Shown piece after piece: positions 2,539-63,600 of a stretch of DNA of 64,000 bases. This DNA is from a virus (Duplodnaviria; Caudoviricetes): IMG/VR virus record IMGVR_UViG_3300014205_000183, one strand, 5' to 3'. The notes below the pieces were generated by a model that saw nothing but the letters and a program-made list of their open reading frames with translations, searched no databases and was not told where the DNA came from. The first letter of the stretch is position 1. The number at the start of each line of letters is the position of its first letter. A program made the position numbers and the translations under genes.

Positions 2539-4803
2539 TTAATTACAATCTTCAAAAAATGTTCCGTTTTCCAGAGACGCTGAGACAACACCTGGAGTGC
2601 CACCATCAATAATCTCAGACTGCCTTCTTGAAAGTGAAGCCTGGACCTTATTAGCAGTTCTGTTTGCCAGAGTAGGCGTCTGCGCCTTATTAGCTTCCAG
2701 ATTAGCGATCAGTCTTCCAAAGGCTTTAAATTCAGCTTGGGCGTTCCTGTACAGTTCAGCCAATACCGTCTGTTGTTCACCACGCTGTTCTTCGGTTATT
2801 GCACCTACTTTAACGGCACGGTCTGTTAATAATGTGGCCTCAGTAACCGACAGGCGCTCAGCCATTTTACGATTACTTTCAACCAATATAGTTGCTTTTA
2901 ATTCTGCTTTTTTTACCATTGAGAACTGTGGGTCAACCTTCTCCTCTTTAGAAGTAGTGCTGTACCCTTTACCGTTCTGGTCAAGACCTCTGAGTGTTTT
3001 TGACACGTCAGCACTTGCGTCAGGGCGTTTAGTTGTTGCACTGTCTGTTGGACTGTCCGGTGTTTTAGCTGTGGACTTCTTCACCATACTGAACTGAGGA
3101 TCAACCTTTTCATCCTTAGAAGTGGAACCGTATCCCTTACCGTTCTGGTCAAGACCTCTGAGTGTTTTTGACACATCAACGCTTGCATCAGGACGTTTAG
3201 TTGTCGCACTGTCTGTTGGACTGTCTGGAGTCTTGGCAGTAGCTTTCACTTGCTTATTACTACGAGCAACCAATGCCTGGGCTTCAGGTTCTGTCGCACA
3301 TTCAACAATTTCAGTTTCTGAAATTTGAACATTAAACTTACCATTAGGAGCAGGTGCGTAAGTGGTTGTGAAGCTCTTACCAACTGTACCATTATCAGAA
3401 GCAGGTGCTTCTGGAGCTGGTATAGCATCGGGAGCTTTATCTGCTTTAGCATCGGGACCAGGAGCATCACCTTCAGCAGCAGTCTTTTTCTTACCGCTAC
3501 GAACCATCTTTATAGCTGCGCGAACGCGGTCTTCAATAGAAGCACCCTTAAGGTCAGGCATTTCACCTGCTTCAGGTTTTTCAACCTTTTCAGCTTTGTC
3601 ACCTTCAGGTTTTTCAGTTTTCTCTTCTTTGGCTTCGATCTTCTCGACAGCTTCCTCAACTTTTTCAGTTGGGATTTTGATAGTGACATTCTTCTCATCA
3701 GCCTTAACTGTAACGTCTTTTTCAGCAGACTTTTTAACGGATATGATCCTTTTTACAGAATTAGCCATTACAGTCTTTTCGATTCCGGCGACAGATACTT
3801 TAAGACGGGCACCATCAACAGAACTGATGACCCCAATAGAACCGTCAGCAAGCAGTACGCGCTCAGCAGCAGCATATACTGTAGTAGATGCAATTGTGGC
3901 TGTACGATAATTTTTACCTATTGGCTTACGCATAGCTGAAACAGTTTTAACTGGTGTGCTTGCTGCGGCAACCGATTTTGTAGGCATGAGCTTATCAGCC
4001 ATACGCTCTAGGATAGTGGCCTGACGCACATTTGCTGCTTTTTTAGTTGCATCTTTTTCAAGCGCAGCTTTCTTTGTGAGACTCATGGCAGCAGTATATA
4101 ATTTCTTAGCACGAGCACGACGATTGGCGGAAACATCAGGCCCACCTTCATTCATGCCTGGGGCATGACTGTTGATTGGCGCACCTTTTTCTTTTTCTTC
4201 GGTGTTACCAGCCTGTGGAAACTGCGGAGGCATTCCTGGAGCCATACCTTTCTGAGGTGGGCGATTACCAGGCACTGTACCGGAATCCATCACTGGGGCT
4301 TCACCCTCAGCAGCACGTCTGCGGAGAGCAAAACTACGACGAGCAGCTTCACGAGCACGAAGACTTGCAGCCTTCTCAGGTGCTTTGATAGCATCGGTTG
4401 ATGGATAACCTTTTTCAAGTTTTTCAAGTTCAGGAGAAGAAGCAAGTCTACTTACTTCTGTAGCCAGCTTTTTGACATGGTCAATTGCAGCTTGGATCTT
4501 CGTGGCATCTCTACGGATGCTAAATCCTCTGATTGCAGCCTGACGAACACCCTTGTCCGCATCTGCACGAGTAATGAGGTTTTCACTTGCACTTTTGTTT
4601 AAAGCAGCGCGTTTAGCAGTCACCTGCTGACCAGCTTTAACATTTGCGGCTTTGAGTTGAAACAACTCAGCAGCGGCTGAACCAAGTGTGCTTTTAATTT
4701 CACGAACCTGCATAGATGACAACCGGGTTTTGCGCGTCCGGGCGGCATCAATAAGGCGTCCGACCTTGTCTAGGCCTGACATAAGTAATTTCTTATCAAC
4801 CAT
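2539..4803 (-). CDS. head scaffolding/core protein
   Basis: Lies between protease and decoration/capsid genes; low-complexity and coiled-coil; many K/R-x-A motifs. Confidence 0.6.
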   Translation of the reverse strand: MVDKKLLMSGLDKVGRLIDAARTRKTRLSSMQVREIKSTLGSAAAELFQLKAANVKAGQQVTAKRAALNKSASENLITRADADKGVRQAAIRGFSIRRDATKIQAAIDHVKKLATEVSRLASSPELEKLEKGYPSTDAIKAPEKAASLRAREAARRSFALRRRAAEGEAPVMDSGTVPGNRPPQKGMAPGMPPQFPQAGNTEEKEKGAPINSHAPGMNEGGPDVSANRRARAKKLYTAAMSLTKKAALEKDATKKAANVRQATILERMADKLMPTKSVAAASTPVKTVSAMRKPIGKNYRTATIASTTVYAAAERVLLADGSIGVISSVDGARLKVSVAGIEKTVMANSVKRIISVKKSAEKDVTVKADEKNVTIKIPTEKVEEAVEKIEAKEEKTEKPEGDKAEKVEKPEAGEMPDLKGASIEDRVRAAIKMVRSGKKKTAAEGDAPGPDAKADKAPDAIPAPEAPASDNGTVGKSFTTTYAPAPNGKFNVQISETEIVECATEPEAQALVARSNKQVKATAKTPDSPTDSATTKRPDASVDVSKTLRGLDQNGKGYGSTSKDEKVDPQFSMVKKSTAKTPDSPTDSATTKRPDASADVSKTLRGLDQNGKGYSTTSKEEKVDPQFSMVKKAELKATILVESNRKMAERLSVTEATLLTDRAVKVGAITEEQRGEQQTVLAELYRNAQAEFKAFGRLIANLEANKAQTPTLANRTANKVQASLSRRQSEIIDGGTPGVVSASLENGTFFEDCN
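2911..3238 (-). repeat. two-copy 56-aa (168-bp period) tandem repeat in the scaffold
   Basis: AKTPDSPTDSATTKRPDAS.DVSKTLRGLDQNGKGY..TSK.EKVDPQFSMVKK occurs twice with synonymous DNA differences. Confidence 0.95.
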
Positions 4804-57533: not shown

Positions 57534-58997
57534 TTATCTGAGATTTTCAACCTCTCTAATATAAGACAAGATACCCTCGCTGAAGCCGCTGATATGGTTC
57601 CAAGTTCCCCTAGGACCTACACCGTGCTCTGCTGAAGCCACGTTAACCATGTAAGCCAGCGGCGTTCTGGCGTTTGGAACTGATGTCCTGGACTGCTCAT
57701 CGGTGAACACTATAAGCCGGTCATAATCCTTCTTCTCTGCTGCGGATACTGCATAGGCGATGTCAGTGCCACCACCGAATACAGCGCCTGCCAAGGCATC
57801 CCGCAAAGCGAATCCTTTGCGTGGTGGCAACAGCAGTAACTCACCCCTATTGCCAAAGCTGTAAATATCTACATCATCACAAACCCATCGCAACACCATG
57901 GCCAACCCGAAGGCAGCCTCGTATCGCATAAGTTCTGACTTATCAGATAGAGGGTCTTTCATCGAACCACTAGTATCTACCAGCAACGCTGTACGACCAG
58001 CCAATTTAACCTGGCTTAATATAGACTTCTCCATAACGGCCTCTAACTCTGGCTCAAAAGCCGGCGCATGCTTGGCTGCGGCGATGAATCTGAATGGCAA
58101 TATCTTGCTAGTCTTCATAGCAAGCAACGCCTCCTTTATTAACGCCCGGTCAACACCTGCCTGCTCCATGTTACGCAAGTTGCGTAACAAGGCCATCCCA
58201 CCAAGCAGCTCCTCCTTTATCAGGCGAGTGAAGGTCTTCTTCTTATCTGCACCTGCACTTAAAGCGGTCTCCCAGGTATCTGGGATAGGTAATACAGCCT
58301 CCTCATAGTTGGTGCATGGCTCACCTGGCTTACGCCGCTTTACTGGCTTCTTAGCCTTCTTGCGAGCCTGTTCAGCCTTCTTTATAGCTGCTGGAGAGGC
58401 ATGGTCGTCACACTTACACCAACAATGCTTACAGAAGTTACCACTAAGGGTCTTGAACAGTCTGTCCTGCTCCTTATCAACTGCCTTTGGTCTAGCCAAA
58501 AACAACACGTCACGCAACTTCACAGCTGCATTGTTGAAGTCCCACTTAGACAGACGCTCAAGATCAAACTTACCGAGACCGGCAGCCAATCCTCGCTTAA
58601 GCTGCTTGGATAGCATCTTGCGGTCACCGTTTACTGACCAGTAAAGGCTTACCAACTCGCCCAGCTCATCTGGGCGCTGAATCACAGCCTCTGCGGTCTT
58701 GGCCACAAACTCAGGATGAAACTTGCACATAGCAACGACAATCATGAGTGGGGCATGCCGCATATGCCACTTTGACCGAACCTCTATAGCCCAATCACTG
58801 GCAAACTGACCAGACACCTTGGCCACTGCATCATATATAGCAGTCTTTATGGTCTTACCATCTACATAGAACTGATCCTCTCCCAGGAAGCAACAGGCAG
58901 TTAGCCGTTGTAGTAGCTGCTCTGGAGTATTTCTGATAGCTACCGCACCCTCGTGGGTGTGTGGAGCTGGGGTTACGATTTTACGATTTGACTTCAT
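57534..58997 (-). CDS. Ro60/Rsr-like TROVE-domain RNA-binding protein with vWA domain
   Basis: THEG, FY.DG, MR..P, QRPDE..E, LRDVLFL..PK, TWET.LS, MALLRNLRN, LPFRF..A, LVDTSGSM (MIDAS), GGTD, FTDEQ. Confidence 0.93.
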   Translation of the reverse strand: MKSNRKIVTPAPHTHEGAVAIRNTPEQLLQRLTACCFLGEDQFYVDGKTIKTAIYDAVAKVSGQFASDWAIEVRSKWHMRHAPLMIVVAMCKFHPEFVAKTAEAVIQRPDELGELVSLYWSVNGDRKMLSKQLKRGLAAGLGKFDLERLSKWDFNNAAVKLRDVLFLARPKAVDKEQDRLFKTLSGNFCKHCWCKCDDHASPAAIKKAEQARKKAKKPVKRRKPGEPCTNYEEAVLPIPDTWETALSAGADKKKTFTRLIKEELLGGMALLRNLRNMEQAGVDRALIKEALLAMKTSKILPFRFIAAAKHAPAFEPELEAVMEKSILSQVKLAGRTALLVDTSGSMKDPLSDKSELMRYEAAFGLAMVLRWVCDDVDIYSFGNRGELLLLPPRKGFALRDALAGAVFGGGTDIAYAVSAAEKKDYDRLIVFTDEQSRTSVPNARTPLAYMVNVASAEHGVGPRGTWNHISGFSEGILSYIREVENLR

Positions 58998-59245
58998 TGG
59001 ATATCCTTTCTTTTATATGAAACAATTCTTTCAAGAGGTTTCTCATCCTCATTAGCGGCTCTAATCGCAGCTGTACACACATATTGACAATGATACATAT
59101 GTACAGAAGCAGTGTCATACAACTCAGCAAATCCGTCTACTGTGCTAGCTAGGGCGTGTTCTGTTATATCTTTGGGTATATGTACTAATCTACGTTCTAA
59201 CTCGTTGTCTGCATTCACTAATAGAATTGTACCTTCGATAGCCAT
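58994..59245 (-). CDS. hypothetical protein translationally coupled to Ro60
   Basis: AGGAGG before MAIEG (59245); ATGA overlap with the Ro60 start; the longer ORF call runs into an RNA gene. Confidence 0.6.
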   Translation of the reverse strand: MAIEGTILLVNADNELERRLVHIPKDITEHALASTVDGFAELYDTASVHMYHCQYVCTAAIRAANEDEKPLERIVSYKRKDIQ

Positions 59246-59270
59246 TACATACCTCCTGTTAAGTACAAAT

Positions 59271-59300
59271 AAAAAAGCCACGGACAATATGTTCGTGGCT
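59271..59300 (-). terminator. intrinsic terminator between the ncRNA array and the Ro60 operon
   Basis: AGCCACGAACA-TAT-TGTCCGTGGCT followed by TTTTT. Confidence 0.7.
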
Positions 59301-59314
59301 AGATTTATAAAGTA

Positions 59315-59448
59315 TTGCGGGTAACGCATGAAACGAGCTTTTTTTGACGGTTGCTCTGCCAACTGAGCTACAGCAGCCTAAGCCGCTGATGGGACTCGAA
59401 CCCATGACCTACTGTGTGGTTGAAGTATTCGTCTCTCCAACACCGCAA
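59315..59448 (-). ncRNA. Y RNA (YrlA-like) 1
   Basis: TTGCG/CGCAA terminal stem; TGTTG..TACTTC; permuted tRNA module (T-arm GGGTTCGAGTCCC, closed acceptor hairpin, D-arm TAGCTCAGTTGGCAGAGC); CGTTACC; adjacent to Ro60. Confidence 0.85.
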
Positions 59449-59455
59449 ATTATAA

Positions 59456-59541
59456 ATCCGGGAACGTTCGACTGCCGTTAGTGGGTTACCCCACGGTCAT
59501 ACCAAAAAAGAATGAAGTAACGGATGTCTATCACCACGGAT
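59456..59541 (-). ncRNA. Y RNA 2 (minimal, no tRNA-like module)
   Basis: ATCCG/CGGAT stem; TGGTG..TACTTC..CGTTCC shared with the other copies. Confidence 0.7.
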
Positions 59542-59557
59542 CATTTTTCTTATTAAT

Positions 59558-59671
59558 AAGTCGGGAACGGGCACTGCACGTTAGCCCTTACCAAATAGGG
59601 CGAGGCATCTGGCGTTAACCAGGTGCACTGGGATTTGAACCTAGAAGTAGGTGCAATAATCACCACGACTT
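59558..59671 (-). ncRNA. Y RNA (YrlA-like) 3
   Basis: AAGTCG/CGACTT stem; TGGTG..TACTTC; T-arm GGTTCAAATCC; closed acceptor; D-arm GCCCTATTTGGTAAGGGC; CGTTCC. Confidence 0.8.
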
Positions 59672-60444
59672 GAATATGTGAAAGAACAAATAGACCAATT
59701 TATAAACCCAGTTAGAGGAAAAATAGAGGTAAAAAATAACCCCTACCGTGGCTGTTGCCAGTACCGCCCTCCAACCAAGCAATTTTTAAGAGTAGCTTGA
59801 GTGTCGGTACCGGTACTAATGATCTGTCCATATGAACAAACCCGTTCTCAGCCCTTGTTCTCTCACTACTCAACGTTTAAGGTTACCTTGATAATATTAG
59901 CTAACATTAATGTGGCCACAAAGAACGTCGAATACCAGGTACTGGTTATGAGCCAGCAGTCCAATATCACCTTTAAGACCTTCTTGCTACCAAAATATTA
60001 TCAAAGAACCAGTTTCTGTGTTCACGGGAGTGTCAGGCATCATCAGTGCAGGATTGAGAGCTACCCGGGCAGAATCGATTCTACTTGACCGGACAATCCT
60101 AACTGCACCCAACACAAGAAACTCCCGAGAACACACAATCAATTTGGAGCCAGACGCCCCCGGTTGATTAGACCGAAGGTTTGCTACGGAATCACCCGTA
60201 TGCTGGCAAGTTTTTACCTCTCTTCGTATCTCTACAGGCAGGAGGAGATCCCGGGAGCTGTTTTACCAGCCGCCACCCACCACCGTATTTTGTTAAATAC
60301 GGAAAATATTTCTCGTCGTAAGAATAAAGAGGCTTGTGGCCCCGCCTGGTCCCCGGCCTTACAACGAAATTTTAAAGGGGGTATATCCTTATCTTTTAGG
60401 GATAAGTGCCCTCGGGTGGAGTCTATATACCCTTTAATTTATAA

Positions 60445-60579
60445 TGCCGGTAACGTGCGAAACACTGACGTGTGCGCTCTACCACTGAGCTACGTTCGGC
60501 ATGAATGGGCCAAACGACAGGATTCGAACCTGTGACCTCACCCTCCAAAAGGGAAGTAAGTGTATCTATCAACACGGCA
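60445..60579 (-). ncRNA. Y RNA (YrlA-like) 4
   Basis: TGCCG/CGGCA stem; TGTTG..TACTTC; T-arm CAGGTTCGAATCCTG; D-arm TAGCTCAGTGGTAGAGC; CGTTACC. Confidence 0.85.
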
Positions 60580-60614
60580 AATTTTATATCAAAGAACAAG
60601 CTAATCTACAAACC

Positions 60615-60740
60615 TCAGCAGAAGTGGGAGTCGAACCCACAGAACCCAGAGAGATAACAGACTCTCTAAGTAACCTCTTTTCGCTTGCCGTTATCGCAGC
60701 TACTCGAAAGCGCGGCTGCCAATTTTCGCCATTCTGCTGA
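60615..60740 (-). ncRNA. tRNA-like RNA with expanded anticodon domain and no CCA
   Basis: TCAGCAGAA/TTCTGCTGA acceptor; D-arm; long variable arm; T-arm GTGGGTTCGACTCCCAC. Confidence 0.65.
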
Positions 60741-61636
60741 TTTCTTTTTAACGATCATAGAGGGGCATGGTCAGCACGGAGGTTTATAAGCCCCTCACCG
60801 CTGAGTATTTAATTCAGCTTCAACCAACTATGCTTGTCCTCTACAATCTACATGTCAAAGTCATGGGTCAGAATTTAGTCAAAAACTTAACCTAAACCCT
60901 AAGTCTCTGCTTCTGTTTGGACTGGCTACCGTCCATGCAAATATGGCGCCCCTACAATAGAGTGACTATTCACAACACTTGCCCTAATGCCTTGCAGTTA
61001 CCCCGGGTGCGGCACCTACTCTAGTGTCATTGCAGCATCTCTTCGCTGCGTAGAGGACTTTTAATAAGTGCTACTAGATCCGGTTGTTGGAGCTGCATTA
61101 GCGCCTAGAGAGGATGTGTTCGCACGGTTTAAAGATTCTCACAAGGTTGGGCAGGTAGTGTCTCCTGCTCTGACTGGTCAAGCCTCTTTATTCTCGGCCC
61201 TTCCCACGTAACCAACGGGTGAGCTTCCGAGTTCATCAACGTGTTTCAACGCTGCACCAACCCTGTCAGAATCCTTAACTCTTTTACAAGTGAGGTTGGC
61301 TAACACGCACTTGTGTCCGAGTTGTTTACCGAGTTCGCTCGGTGGTCCACGGGCAACCCTGCGTTGCTCCTCACTTATTTTTTAAGGGTGTCCTGAACTT
61401 TAGACGAACTGCGTCAAGCAAGCCGGATCGTGACCCCGGATTTCCCTAAGTTTGAAGACACAGCCAAGGGTCGCGCCCTTCTCGACGGTCTCTCACCGCA
61501 AGCCATGCCAAATTTATAAACCAACAGGAGATATATCCATAAGGATATAACAAAGTTACTGGAGCAATTACGCTTCATCACAACGGTAGCGACCTTACGG
61601 TGCGCCCATCCTGTTGATAATTTATTTCAAAGAACA

Positions 61637-61842
61637 AAAATCATATATCGATGGAGTCGAACCACCTAGTCTGCCTACTTACATTTACCTACCGGATTTT
61701 CATGTCCGTTCCAGTGTAGGCCGTGCACCAGTTGTTTAGACCGCACACGTACAGGATTTGAACCCGCAATAAATGTGTGCTTCAACAGCATTTGCAGCTT
61801 ACGAGGCTACTGCGTTCACCATGACGCCCCACATATGATTTT
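61637..61842 (-). ncRNA. ~205-nt tRNA-like RNA with two T-arms
   Basis: AAAATCATAT/ATATGATTTT closing stem; D-arm; anticodon-like arm; T-arms CGGGTTCAAATCCTG and GTGGTTCGACTCCAT. Confidence 0.6.
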
Positions 61843-61867
61843 AAAAGAACATTTTAATTTCCTAAAT

Positions 61868-61915
61868 AACATAAACTATTAAAAATTAAAAGTCAACATA
61901 AAAATAAAAAAAAAT
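61868..61915 (-). promoter_or_regulatory. sigma70-like promoter of the ncRNA operon
   Basis: TTGACT-17 bp-TATGTT with a T-rich UP element; boxA-like GTTCTTT just downstream. Confidence 0.7.
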
Positions 61916-62035
61916 TATCACACTCGGTACGATTATTCTTTACATCTCATTTTTAACACTATATATTAGCAGCATCATCGACCAACGGAGTTTAACCATT
62001 TTGATATCTACTCCGTATATCAAGAAAGGACATGT

Positions 62036-62740
62036 ATGATGCATTCAAATTCTTTTGTCTTAGCTGTCAAGTCGGCGGACAACAAAATCCTTCGTGAAAT
62101 CGGAGGACAGGTTTTCCTCACATTCAATTCAGAGTATTCTCTCCTGCTGAAGAACCTTAACAATGTAAAAAGCTGTTGCACAGTTAGCATTGACGGAACG
62201 GATGTTCTAGGTGGTCACGAGTTGATCGTCGAAGCACATTCCAGTATTGACCTAGAGAGATTTGTGGTAGATGGCAACTTTGGAAGTGGTCGCCGCTTCA
62301 AATTTGTACCACTTACGGACTCTAAGGTACAAGACCCCTCTTCTGCTGAAAATGGTATCGTGGAAGTGCGGTTCTGGAAAGAGAAAGTTATTCAACCTAT
62401 CTTCATAGGGAGTAACTCTCTTCTTCGATCAAGCGGGGTGATCCATCCTAACTCCAGCAGTTGCTTCTATTCAGCTCCTATAGGTACTGCCTGCTGTGAT
62501 AGTATGGCTACTCCAGCGGCTGCGGGGGCTACTGTAGAAGGTGCATATAGCAATCAGCAGTTTGGCAGCGGATACTTCGGAGAAAAAGACGGGGCACCCA
62601 CCGTGCTGCGGCTTAAGTTGGTTGGTCAGGTAGATAAACCACTAACAGTAGAAGCTACTAAAAATAAACACTGCACTAACTGTGGCCGAAAAGCCAAGTT
62701 CAATGATTATTTCTGTGGTGGCTGCGGTAAAGCTCTATAA
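62036..62740 (+). CDS. hypothetical protein with C-terminal zinc ribbon
   Basis: 234 aa; AAAGGA RBS; CTNCG...CGGCG; own terminator; the only convincing plus-strand gene in the window. Confidence 0.8.
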   Translation: MMHSNSFVLAVKSADNKILREIGGQVFLTFNSEYSLLLKNLNNVKSCCTVSIDGTDVLGGHELIVEAHSSIDLERFVVDGNFGSGRRFKFVPLTDSKVQDPSSAENGIVEVRFWKEKVIQPIFIGSNSLLRSSGVIHPNSSSCFYSAPIGTACCDSMATPAAAGATVEGAYSNQQFGSGYFGEKDGAPTVLRLKLVGQVDKPLTVEATKNKHCTNCGRKAKFNDYFCGGCGKAL

Positions 62741-62765
62741 GATCCAGTTACTCGGTCGATGACAG

Positions 62766-62795
62766 CCCGGCTTCCATGGTGGAGGCCGGGTTTTT
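62766..62795 (+). terminator. intrinsic terminator
   Basis: CCCGGCTTCC-ATGGT-GGAGGCCGGG followed by TTTTT. Confidence 0.8.
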
Positions 62796-62802
62796 AATTT
62801 AA

Positions 62803-62925
62803 TGCCGGTAACGTGCGTTTTCGGATGTTTTTTGTTTTACCATTAAACTACACCTTACGGCGTCGGGATTCGAACCCGAATCTTTCTTTAGACAGAAGAA
62901 GTATCCGATAACTATCAACACGGCA
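62803..62925 (-). ncRNA. Y RNA (YrlA-like) 5
   Basis: TGCCG/CGGCA stem; TGTTGATAG..TACTTC; T-arm TCGGGTTCGAATCCCGA; short closed acceptor; D-arm TAGTTTAATGGTAAAAC; CGTTACC. Confidence 0.85.
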
Positions 62926-62929
62926 ATTT

Positions 62930-63018
62930 TGGCGGATGAAGTGAGACTCGAACTCACAACGCCGTCTCTGGCGCTACTGCTTTTCAAGAGCAGCTCCCGT
63001 TCCAGCAGGAACTCATCC
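62930..63018 (-). tRNA. tRNA-Ser(TGA)
   Basis: Anticodon loop CTTGAAA; long variable arm; TTCGA; encoded CCA; atypical D-arm. Confidence 0.85.
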
Positions 63019-63026
63019 ATATATTT

Positions 63027-63103
63027 TGGAGCACCCTCCCGGAATTGCACCGAGGTATTAATCGGGTTGCGACCGACCGCCTTACTGTCTTGGCTAAGAG
63101 TGC
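63027..63103 (-). tRNA. tRNA-Cys(GCA)
   Basis: Loop TCGCAAC; U73 discriminator; CCA; T-loop TGCAA. Confidence 0.8.
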
Positions 63104-63113
63104 ATATAAATTT

Positions 63114-63194
63114 TGGTGCGCTAGGAGGGACTTGCACCCCCACGATTTCTCGGCAGATCCTAAGTCTGCTGCGTCTGCATTCCGCCACAAGCGC
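63114..63194 (-). tRNA. tRNA-Leu(TAG)
   Basis: Loop CTTAGGA; A73; CCA; T-loop TGCAA. Confidence 0.85.
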
Positions 63195-63200
63195 ATAATC

Positions 63201-63277
63201 TGGTATCCTCGGTTGGATTCTAACCAACGACATCCTCTTTAGGAAAGAAGAACTCTGAACAGCTGAGCTACGAGGAT
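63201..63277 (-). tRNA. tRNA-Arg(CCT)
   Basis: Loop TTCCTAA; CCA; T-loop TAGAA. Confidence 0.85.
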
Positions 63278-63278
63278 A

Positions 63279-63355
63279 TGGTGCTTCGAGTCGGACTTAA
63301 ACCGACGGCATCAGCCTTCGGAAAGCTGCGCTCTATTCATCTGAGCTATCGAAGC
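63279..63355 (-). tRNA. tRNA-Arg(CCG)
   Basis: Loop TTCCGAA; CCA; T-loop TTTAA. Confidence 0.88.
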
Positions 63356-63360
63356 CTGTT

Positions 63361-63437
63361 TGGCGTTCATGGAAGGACTTGAACCTTCAGCCTCCTGGTC
63401 CGTAGCCAGGTGCTCTATCCAATTGAGCTACACGAAC
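63361..63437 (-). tRNA. tRNA-Arg(ACG)
   Basis: Loop CTACGGA; canonical arms; CCA. Confidence 0.92.
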
Positions 63438-63443
63438 ATATTT

Positions 63444-63519
63444 TGGCAGGAGAGGCCGGAGTTGAACCGACGACATCCAGCTCCAGAGGCTGGCGTTCTA
63501 CCAACTGAACTACTCTCCA
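63444..63519 (-). tRNA. tRNA-Gln(CTG)
   Basis: Loop CTCTGGA; canonical arms; CCA. Confidence 0.9.
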
Positions 63520-63526
63520 ACGATTT

Positions 63527-63600
63527 TGGCTGAGGTGCATCGACTTGCACGATGATAACAGGCTCCAAAGGCCTGGGTCCTACTATTGAACGACACCCCA
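63527..63600 (-). tRNA. tRNA-Gln(TTG)
   Basis: Loop CTTTGGA; U1:A72; CCA; T-loop TGCAA. Confidence 0.88.

Follow-up and report, generated by a model that had tools for sequence, protein, structure and literature searches.

Y RNAs are encoded next to rsr in bacteria and phages, where they are processed from one precursor (Chen et al. 2014, PMC4201824). The phage locus analyzed here resembles these rsr-linked Y RNAs (YrlA/YrlB, Rfam RF02553) in that a TROVE/vWA Ro60 gene again follows directly downstream of an RNA array and shares its strand (PMC4201824). Its YrlA-type tRNA mimics are likewise similar to those of Salmonella, Mycobacterium smegmatis, and mycobacteriophages, for which processing from one precursor is described (PMC4201824). 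Compared with the one or two RNAs described there (PMC4201824), the array is much larger, spanning 2.6 kb and containing four Y RNAs and about 14 other RNAs. Two of its orphan RNAs, here called RNA A and RNA B, share an exact 16-nt complementarity, which a sequence-only reading had proposed to be either a bimolecular RNA pair or a long-range processing stem.

Results

The Ro60-linked RNA array

The window, i.e., the whole 64-kb stretch of DNA that was analyzed, comes from a 132-kb IMG/VR phage record (43% G+C; estimated completeness of 68%), and the same sequence is present on an ENA contig of 236,752 nt (assembly ERZ27247358). Its minus strand encodes a 487-aa Ro60/Rsr orthologue (57534 to 58997; Pfam TROVE, E value of 4e-10; vWA_Ro60; VWA_2), for which a protein search returned more than 7000 TROVE homologues. 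The RNA array of about 2.6 kb (2611 nt) lies just upstream on the minus strand; an 83-amino-acid open reading frame (ORF) (58994 to 59245) is found between the array and the Ro60/Rsr gene, and the region from 59250 to 62035 contains no credible ORF. A promoter-like site (61868 to 61896, minus strand; TTGACT, 17 nt, TATGTT; motif TATGTTGACTTTTA) stands at the array head, and an intrinsic terminator (59271 to 59300, minus strand; an AGCCACG...CGUGGCU hairpin and then U6) closes the RNA operon. Five boxA-like motifs were located by pattern search, one of them, UGUUCUUUGA, at 60589 to 60598 on the minus strand and the other four at 61842 to 61851, 61627 to 61636, 60001 to 60010, and 59679 to 59688. 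We take the UGUUCUUUGA motifs to resemble the boxA antitermination element of Gram-positive rRNA operons.

The array comprises four Y RNAs and about 14 further RNAs, of which two are tRNA-like and about a dozen are orphans; a fifth Y RNA is located upstream of it, beside a tRNA cluster (62930 to 63600, minus strand). One terminal stem (5' SCSGUGKUGAU, 3' CGUUMCC) is common to the five Y RNAs, with 5' motifs at about 59446, 59540, 59669, 60578, and 62924. Tandem Y RNAs 3, 2, and 1 occupy the 3' end of the operon (59316 to 59669, minus strand; YrlA, 45.5 bits at 59327 to 59435), their shared stem motifs lying at 59669, 59540, and 59446 on the 5' side and at 59569, 59466, and 59326 on the 3' side. 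Y RNA 4, a YrlA-type tRNA mimic (60440 to 60582, minus strand; YrlA, 30.9 bits, E value of 4.6e-4 at 60471 to 60541), carries the shared terminal-stem motifs GCCGUGUUGAUAG and CGUUACCGG. This shared stem fits the published picture of rsr-adjacent, coprocessed Y RNAs (PMC4201824).

Within the array, Rfam YrlA-type matches were limited to 59327 to 59435 and 60471 to 60541. At permissive Rfam thresholds, these and weak tRNA matches were the only hits; ribozyme, intron, tmRNA, and known sRNA families were not found in the array, including the region between the two complementary arms. One weak match corresponds to a tRNA-like RNA (60616 to 60738, minus strand; Rfam tRNA, 25.9 bits, E value of 0.007, under the gathering score) in which a 9-bp acceptor stem is combined with a long extra arm and an enlarged anticodon region. 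ARAGORN, run with relaxed settings, gave doubtful intron-containing tRNA calls only. By local folding, the remainder of the array resolves into about a dozen modules, many of them closed by long near-perfect helices.

Predicted folds of the modules RNA A and RNA B

RNA A is an orphan RNA of 149 nt (61130 to 61278, minus strand) with a predicted folding energy of -58.9 kcal/mol (z score of -4.83), a value that none of 200 shuffles equaled. About 20 pairs, two of them G-U, make up its closing helix, which contains one mismatch and encloses a four-hairpin junction. RNA B is an orphan stem-loop of about 59 nt (60311 to 60369, minus strand; -25.4 kcal/mol, z score of -3.05), in which an outer stem of about 12 bp surrounds two small GC hairpins. 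The minus-strand folds suggested for both RNAs by the sequence-only reading were thereby confirmed. Since the plus-strand versions fold much worse (z scores of -2.61 for RNA A and -0.18 for RNA B), we assign the RNAs to the minus strand, the strand of the TROVE gene (57534 to 58997), upstream of which they lie at distances of 1.3 kb (RNA B) and 2.1 kb (RNA A). They share this placement, on the strand of rsr and at a distance of no more than about 2 kb, with Y RNAs of the YrlA/YrlB type.

Neither RNA matched an Rfam family at E values up to 10. At the same threshold, no Rfam match indicated a tRNA-like module (T-arm, acceptor-like stem, or D-arm) in either of them, and a pattern search of 61130 to 61278 and 60311 to 60369 showed that the motif pair of the conserved, Rsr-binding Y RNA terminal stem (5' SCSGUGKUGAU, 3' CGUUMCC in this phage) is absent from both.

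An exact, sharply bounded match of 16 nt

The plus-strand sequence AGAATAAAGAGGCTTG at 60321 to 60336 is the exact reverse complement of 61179 to 61194; the match covers 16 nt, and 842 nt separate the two arms. The exact complementarity reported for these sites was verified by searching the 64-kb window with the 16-mer, allowing up to two mismatches, which returned just two sites, 60321 to 60336 (plus) and 61179 to 61194 (minus). There is no third site at this tolerance in the 132-kb genome record, so the arms are each other's sole partners there. Inspection of the sequence showed that the complementarity is exactly 16 bp: outward, one G-U pair is followed by mismatches on both sides, and inward it stops immediately. 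The ends are thus sharp, with no wobble-tolerant or imperfect extension past 16 bp.

A perfect 16-bp inverted repeat with sharp boundaries and a spacing of 842 bp is what terminal inverted repeats usually look like, and the arms might be a feature of the DNA: the repeats that bound an invertible segment or a small mobile insertion, or a protein-binding site present twice. We consider this highly improbable. The 132-kb record, which is 68% complete, contains no resolvase/invertase or tyrosine recombinase (PF00239, PF00589), the arm flanks TCGTCGTA and CGGCCCTT show no target-site duplication, and an insertion boundary would split the strongly supported RNA A fold that holds arm 1, all of which makes an insertion or inverton unlikely. 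Further copies of the site are absent from the same record.

On the minus strand, arm 1 (61179 to 61194), which is transcribed first, reads AGAAUAAAGAGGCUUG and lies in the multiloop junction of RNA A; its bases 3 to 10 are predicted to be unpaired (P of at least 0.97), and the remainder sits in weak 4- to 5-bp helices. Arm 2 (60321 to 60336, minus strand) reads CAAGCCUCUUUAUUCU and occupies the 3' side of the RNA B inner loop. Local helices are predicted to engage 6 of the 16 bases of arm 1 and 7 of the 16 of arm 2. Between the arms are further orphan structures, the tRNA-like RNA, a boxA-like motif, Y RNA 4, and one hairpin.

Arm 2 also overlaps a weak terminator-like hairpin (GGGGC/GCCUC) with a U-rich tail, and a terminator-like site was flagged at 60343 to 60329. 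An antiterminator role of arm 1 toward this weak RNA B hairpin was judged implausible on kinetic grounds and rejected, since arm 1 is 860 nt upstream and has already been taken up in the RNA A fold. The idea of a split tRNA was also set aside: neither arm adjoins a D-arm or T-arm, and RtcB is missing. Genes for RtcB and RNase III were both absent from the 132-kb record (68% complete).

The architecture of the arms is compatible with a selected RNA-RNA contact, a reading that we regard as possible but doubtful. It would have the single-stranded junction of RNA A (AAUAAAGAGGCUUG) anneal to the 3' loop of RNA B (CAAGCCUCUUUAUU), a 6-nt A-U seed growing to 14 to 16 bp while displacing small local hairpins. 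Such annealing could take place in cis, before the precursor is processed, or in trans between the processed RNAs, and could serve as an sRNA-sponge/antisense pair or as the assembly of a two-piece scaffold, possibly changing the fold or the stability of one partner within the Ro60/Y RNA operon. In its favor, both arms are on the transcribed strand in discrete modules with significant folds, each arm is 55 to 60% unpaired, the unpaired parts face one another, and each site is the only partner of the other in the 132-kb record. Against it, sharp ends and the lack of G-U pairs are typical of a chance exact match.

Chance expectation in the array and in the window

To what extent the match exceeds chance depends on the region considered. 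In 6000 dinucleotide-preserving shuffles of the 2611-nt array, in which inverted pairs at least 250 nt apart were counted, the mean was 5e-4 exact inverted 16-mers per shuffle, a rarity that speaks for a selected contact. The chance of about 1e-3 proposed earlier for a 16-mer inverted match in 2.5 kb was thus upheld by these shuffles. For the whole 64-kb window, about 0.65 exact inverted 16-mer pairs are expected, at least one is found in 42% of shuffles, and one nonpalindromic pair was observed. The window total being as expected, only the location of the pair is remarkable, the probability that both arms of one random pair in the window land in the array being about 0.002. Allowing for other placements that might have been flagged (array versus tRNAs, array versus gene 5' regions, and direct repeats), we estimate that the effective chance is nearer 1e-2 than 5e-4.

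With the 16-mer set aside, the array shows long-range complementarity at, or slightly above, the background level, and exact 14- to 15-mers that the array shares with unrelated coding DNA are about as frequent as chance predicts (e.g., 2796/59645, 15 nt, and 9439/61127, 14 nt). Two other matches within the array were discarded: a second long-range match (60211 to 60224 with 59722 to 59735; 13 of 14 nt) is at chance level, and an 11-mer match (61539 to 61549 with 60382 to 60392) arises from a common palindromic hairpin motif.

Local folds are predicted to prevail over long-range pairing

In the predicted fold of a 1011-nt precursor, the long-range helix has a pair probability of 0.004 to 0.005, and the minimum-energy fold retains both local structures. 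This bears directly on the proposal of a long-range processing helix, in which the arms would pair over 842 nt in the manner of the stems flanking 16S and 23S rRNAs, aided by a boxA-nucleated antitermination complex, and would form an RNase III site for excising a block that carries orphan RNAs, the tRNA-like RNA, and Y RNA 4. In its favor, the arms bracket a block of whole modules, and the five boxA-like motifs together with the long closing helices do suggest rRNA-style antitermination and processing. We nevertheless judge it very unlikely. In the 1011-nt fold the helix has a probability of 0.005, and the local folds win; moreover, arm 1 is shut in by the closing helix of RNA A, which is complete about 860 nt ahead of the transcription of arm 2. 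Typical RNase III stems are longer than 16 bp, and the present 16 bp, without extension, fall below their usual size (about two helical turns, at least 20 bp). Finally, a boxA motif lies inside the loop rather than outside it, and the arms cut through RNA A and RNA B instead of flanking them.

The bimolecular pair proposed by the sequence-only reading fared no better in co-folding, which returned exactly the sum of the separate folds of RNA A and RNA B with no intermolecular pairs, kissing contacts being outside the model of this method. Energies were then considered with accessibility taken into account. The 16-bp duplex is worth -23.4 kcal/mol, and opening costs 7.1 kcal/mol for RNA A and 10.6 kcal/mol for RNA B (ranges of 3.2 to 7.1 and 8.2 to 10.6 kcal/mol, respectively); these costs may be overstated, because structure prediction is unreliable for weak helices of 4 to 5 bp. 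The accessibility-corrected net energy is -5.7 kcal/mol for the 16 bp and -7.4 kcal/mol for the best 14-bp subduplex. The mutually unpaired seed is AAUAAA/UUUAUU, and beyond it weak helices must open.

For a selected contact, these values cut both ways. The net energy is favorable (-5.7 to -7.4 kcal/mol), and among the 153 pairs that 18 modules can form it is nominally unsurpassed. The A-B pair is, however, no outlier, ranking first without being set apart (-7.44 kcal/mol versus -7.32, -6.79, -6.67, -6.60, and -6.59 kcal/mol; median for the 153 pairs, -1.7 kcal/mol), and the competing top pairs lack long complementarity yet reach -7.3, -6.8, -6.7, and -6.6 kcal/mol. Two further points weigh against the contact: the seed is limited to six A-U pairs, and a 16-bp duplex between two closed loops requires both RNAs to be partly melted.

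Comparison with related loci

We gathered Rsr-anchored loci from viral (11, IMG/VR), metagenomic (50), and genomic (4) sources; the best Rsr relatives among 5.8 billion proteins were 61%, 57%, and 55% identical. At the DNA level, what the Rsr-anchored loci share with the array is limited to the tRNA-like Y modules. The closest relative with usable flanks, locus L042 (Rsr 57% identical), keeps the tRNA order, the promoter motif TATGTTGACTTTTA at the array head, the terminator, and the 83-aa ORF. Its array, of about 860 nt, consists of three Y RNAs and two unrelated spacers, and both RNA A and RNA B are missing, which counts against a selected contact, since L042 is the closest array with readable flanks.

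No homologue of RNA A or RNA B was found in 91 fetched loci or in the IMG/VR, metagenome, genome, and phage collections. The array as a whole had no match among 50,697 phage records by distant blastn, a covariance model built from the single RNA A sequence recovered only RNA A itself from 42 sources, and a Y2-type pattern scan of IMG/VR returned nothing. A search for strain variants via neighboring proteins led back to the same sequence only (the ENA contig, a 139-kb JGI contig, and Logan; shown to be 100% identical in one place). Conservation thus provides no evidence for a selected contact.

The exact 16-mer had 26 single matches in IMG/VR, none with both arms and extended similarity. The longest extensions, in L028 (21 nt) and L026 (24 nt at 92%), were taken as chance because they are located in apparent coding sequences. 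In 29 regions upstream of other Rsr loci, the four longest exact inverted repeats measured 14 to 17 nt with arms about 130 to 165 nt apart, the spacing expected of single-RNA terminal stems; no long-range exact inverted repeat was present in these 29 regions.

Discussion

The sequence-only reading was right in its structural description and in its view of the match as rare inside the array. Our analysis brought no independent support for either of the functions that it proposed (bimolecular pair, long-range processing stem). Coincidence is mildly favored by the folding controls and by the missing conservation, and we give close to, though just short of, even credence to the view that the 16-nt match joins two independent modules by accident and has no dedicated role. 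The arms would then be parts of two distinct modules, each folding by itself, within one long minus-strand transcript, which would run from the promoter near 61868 to 61896 to the terminator at 59271 to 59300, with boxA-like motifs punctuating it; both the single precursor and the function of the boxA elements are what we infer from this layout. The modules would probably be freed from the precursor, a host RNase III-type enzyme presumably cutting the long near-perfect closing helices and RNase P acting at the tRNA-like units. The match itself would be the one exact inverted 16-mer expected per 64 kb, fallen by luck inside the RNA array, and the local fold of each arm would largely explain that arm.

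Two observations run counter to coincidence. Both arms have the same transcript orientation and lie, partly single stranded, in discrete well-folding RNAs, as a real contact would look, and the expectation restricted to the array is merely about 5e-4. The specific proposal that two orphan RNAs encoded in the phage Ro60 operon form a dedicated pair, joined by a junction-loop duplex of 14 to 16 nt and working beside the Y RNAs through sponge/antisense control or as a two-piece scaffold, is one that we consider rather unlikely. Nothing that we found refutes a functional contact, however, and overall the match is an even-odds lead. Whatever credence is not taken up by coincidence, contact, processing helix, or DNA element goes to some other explanation.

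If the pairing is real, a phage Ro60 operon would contain RNAs that are cotranscribed with Y RNAs and communicate with one another, which would offer a handle both on the functions of the roughly one dozen orphan RNAs in this unusually large array and on the use of Ro60 by a phage. If it is a coincidence, it shows that one exact inverted 16-mer is to be expected per 64 kb and that accessibility-corrected energies should be compared with those of background pairs before an RNA-RNA pair is called. In either case, the array is of value in combining Y RNAs, tRNA mimics, orphan RNAs, and boxA-like motifs. It is itself a more novel and more valuable object than the 16-nt match, which is a cheap, testable lead within it.

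How does the match compare with known systems? To our knowledge, programmed RNA-RNA pairing inside an rsr/Y RNA locus has not been reported before. In contrast to YrlA/YrlB, RNA A and RNA B have neither a tRNA-like domain nor the terminal stem of the five Y RNAs of this locus, and the portion of the YrlA paper used here (PMC4201824) describes no pairing between RNAs of an rsr locus.

The array is reminiscent of rRNA operons with their processing stems and boxA in its long noncoding transcript, its repeated boxA-like motifs, and a complementarity spanning several mature RNAs. Unlike rRNA processing stems, however, the duplex here spans only 16 bp, is not predicted to form, interrupts folded modules rather than flanking them, and has a boxA motif inside its loop. 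The presence of two RNAs within about 1 kb that share a perfect stretch recalls the pairing of tracrRNA with crRNA or of split-tRNA halves (12- to 25-nt complementarity), but this locus has no cas genes, repeats, arm-adjoining tRNA halves, or RtcB ligase. Pairs of an sRNA and a sponge derived from stable-RNA precursors exist, an example being the 3'ETS-leuZ spacer of a tRNA operon. As in the 3'ETS-leuZ sponge, a piece of a stable-RNA polycistron is complementary here to another small RNA; the difference is that in the phage array both partners come from the same transcript.

Results

Five Y RNAs lie on the minus strand, three in tandem at 59316-59669 and one each at 60440-60582 and 62800-62924. 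All five share terminal-stem motifs recovered by pattern search (5' SCSGUGKUGAU and 3' CGUUMCC, the latter followed by AUUAUAAAU-like tails), and their inner modules differ despite this single terminal stem. The fifth (62800-62924) stands apart from the others, with a tRNA-Ser on one side and a plus-strand ORF on the other. This 234-aa ORF (62036-62740), which carries the hint of a C-terminal zinc ribbon and has a strong terminator after it (62764-62792), separates the tRNA/Y5 cluster from the main RNA array on the opposite strand.

Two further minus-strand RNAs resemble tRNAs. The first, of 207 nt (61636-61842), is closed by a 12-bp stem and contains two T-arm-like hairpins; part of it is read by ARAGORN as a tRNA-Thr(CGU) whose extra arm is long. 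The Rfam tRNA model scores the RNA at 27.6 bits, slightly below the cut-off. In the second (60616-60738), the acceptor stem spans 9 bp, the T-arm is perfect, the extra arm is long, and the anticodon region is enlarged by about 40 bases; relaxed ARAGORN settings return this RNA as a tRNA-Ser with a 32-nt intron.

The second-best among the predicted inter-module contacts pairs GGGGCGUCUGGC in module 60145-60310 with GCCAGAUGCCUC in Y RNA 3 (59552-59672) over 12 bp, at a net energy of -7.3 kcal/mol, and served solely as a background comparison.

Discussion

At the array's head, the AT-rich stretch around the promoter-like site (61881-61918) recurs at three further sites in the phage genome (G000:C1, 85343-85375, 102070-102101, and 114205-114241; 85 to 97% identity), and is probably a shared phage promoter. 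Pattern search also located five minus-strand UGUUCUUUGA motifs (61842-61851, 61627-61636, 60589-60598, 60001-60010, and 59679-59688). Their resemblance to the boxA of Gram-positive rRNA operons suggests that antitermination carries transcription processively past the array's many hairpins, and that the host is perhaps a member of the Bacillota.

The metagenomic relative L042, compared over regions 1022-2121 and 3400-4260, encodes an Rsr 57% identical to that of the window and keeps the tRNA order Gln, Gln, Arg, Arg, Arg, Leu, Cys, Ser, as well as the promoter motif, the terminator, and the 83-aa ORF. Its array begins with GCUCUUUCAA, in the same place as a boxA-like motif here, and a 339-aa ORF on the RNAs' own strand occupies the position of the 234-aa ORF. 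Because the array of L042 is far shorter (860 nt, three Y RNAs), the orphan RNAs are a variable cargo.

Two such orphans of about 130 nt each, on the minus strand (60013-60138 and 59880-60010), are predicted to fold into long hairpins with a rod-like shape, at -53.6 and -40.3 kcal/mol, respectively. Unlike this phage's Y RNAs, they lack the common Y stem; they are reminiscent of the second Y RNAs of the long-hairpin class, YrlB and Yrn2, described in PMC4201824.
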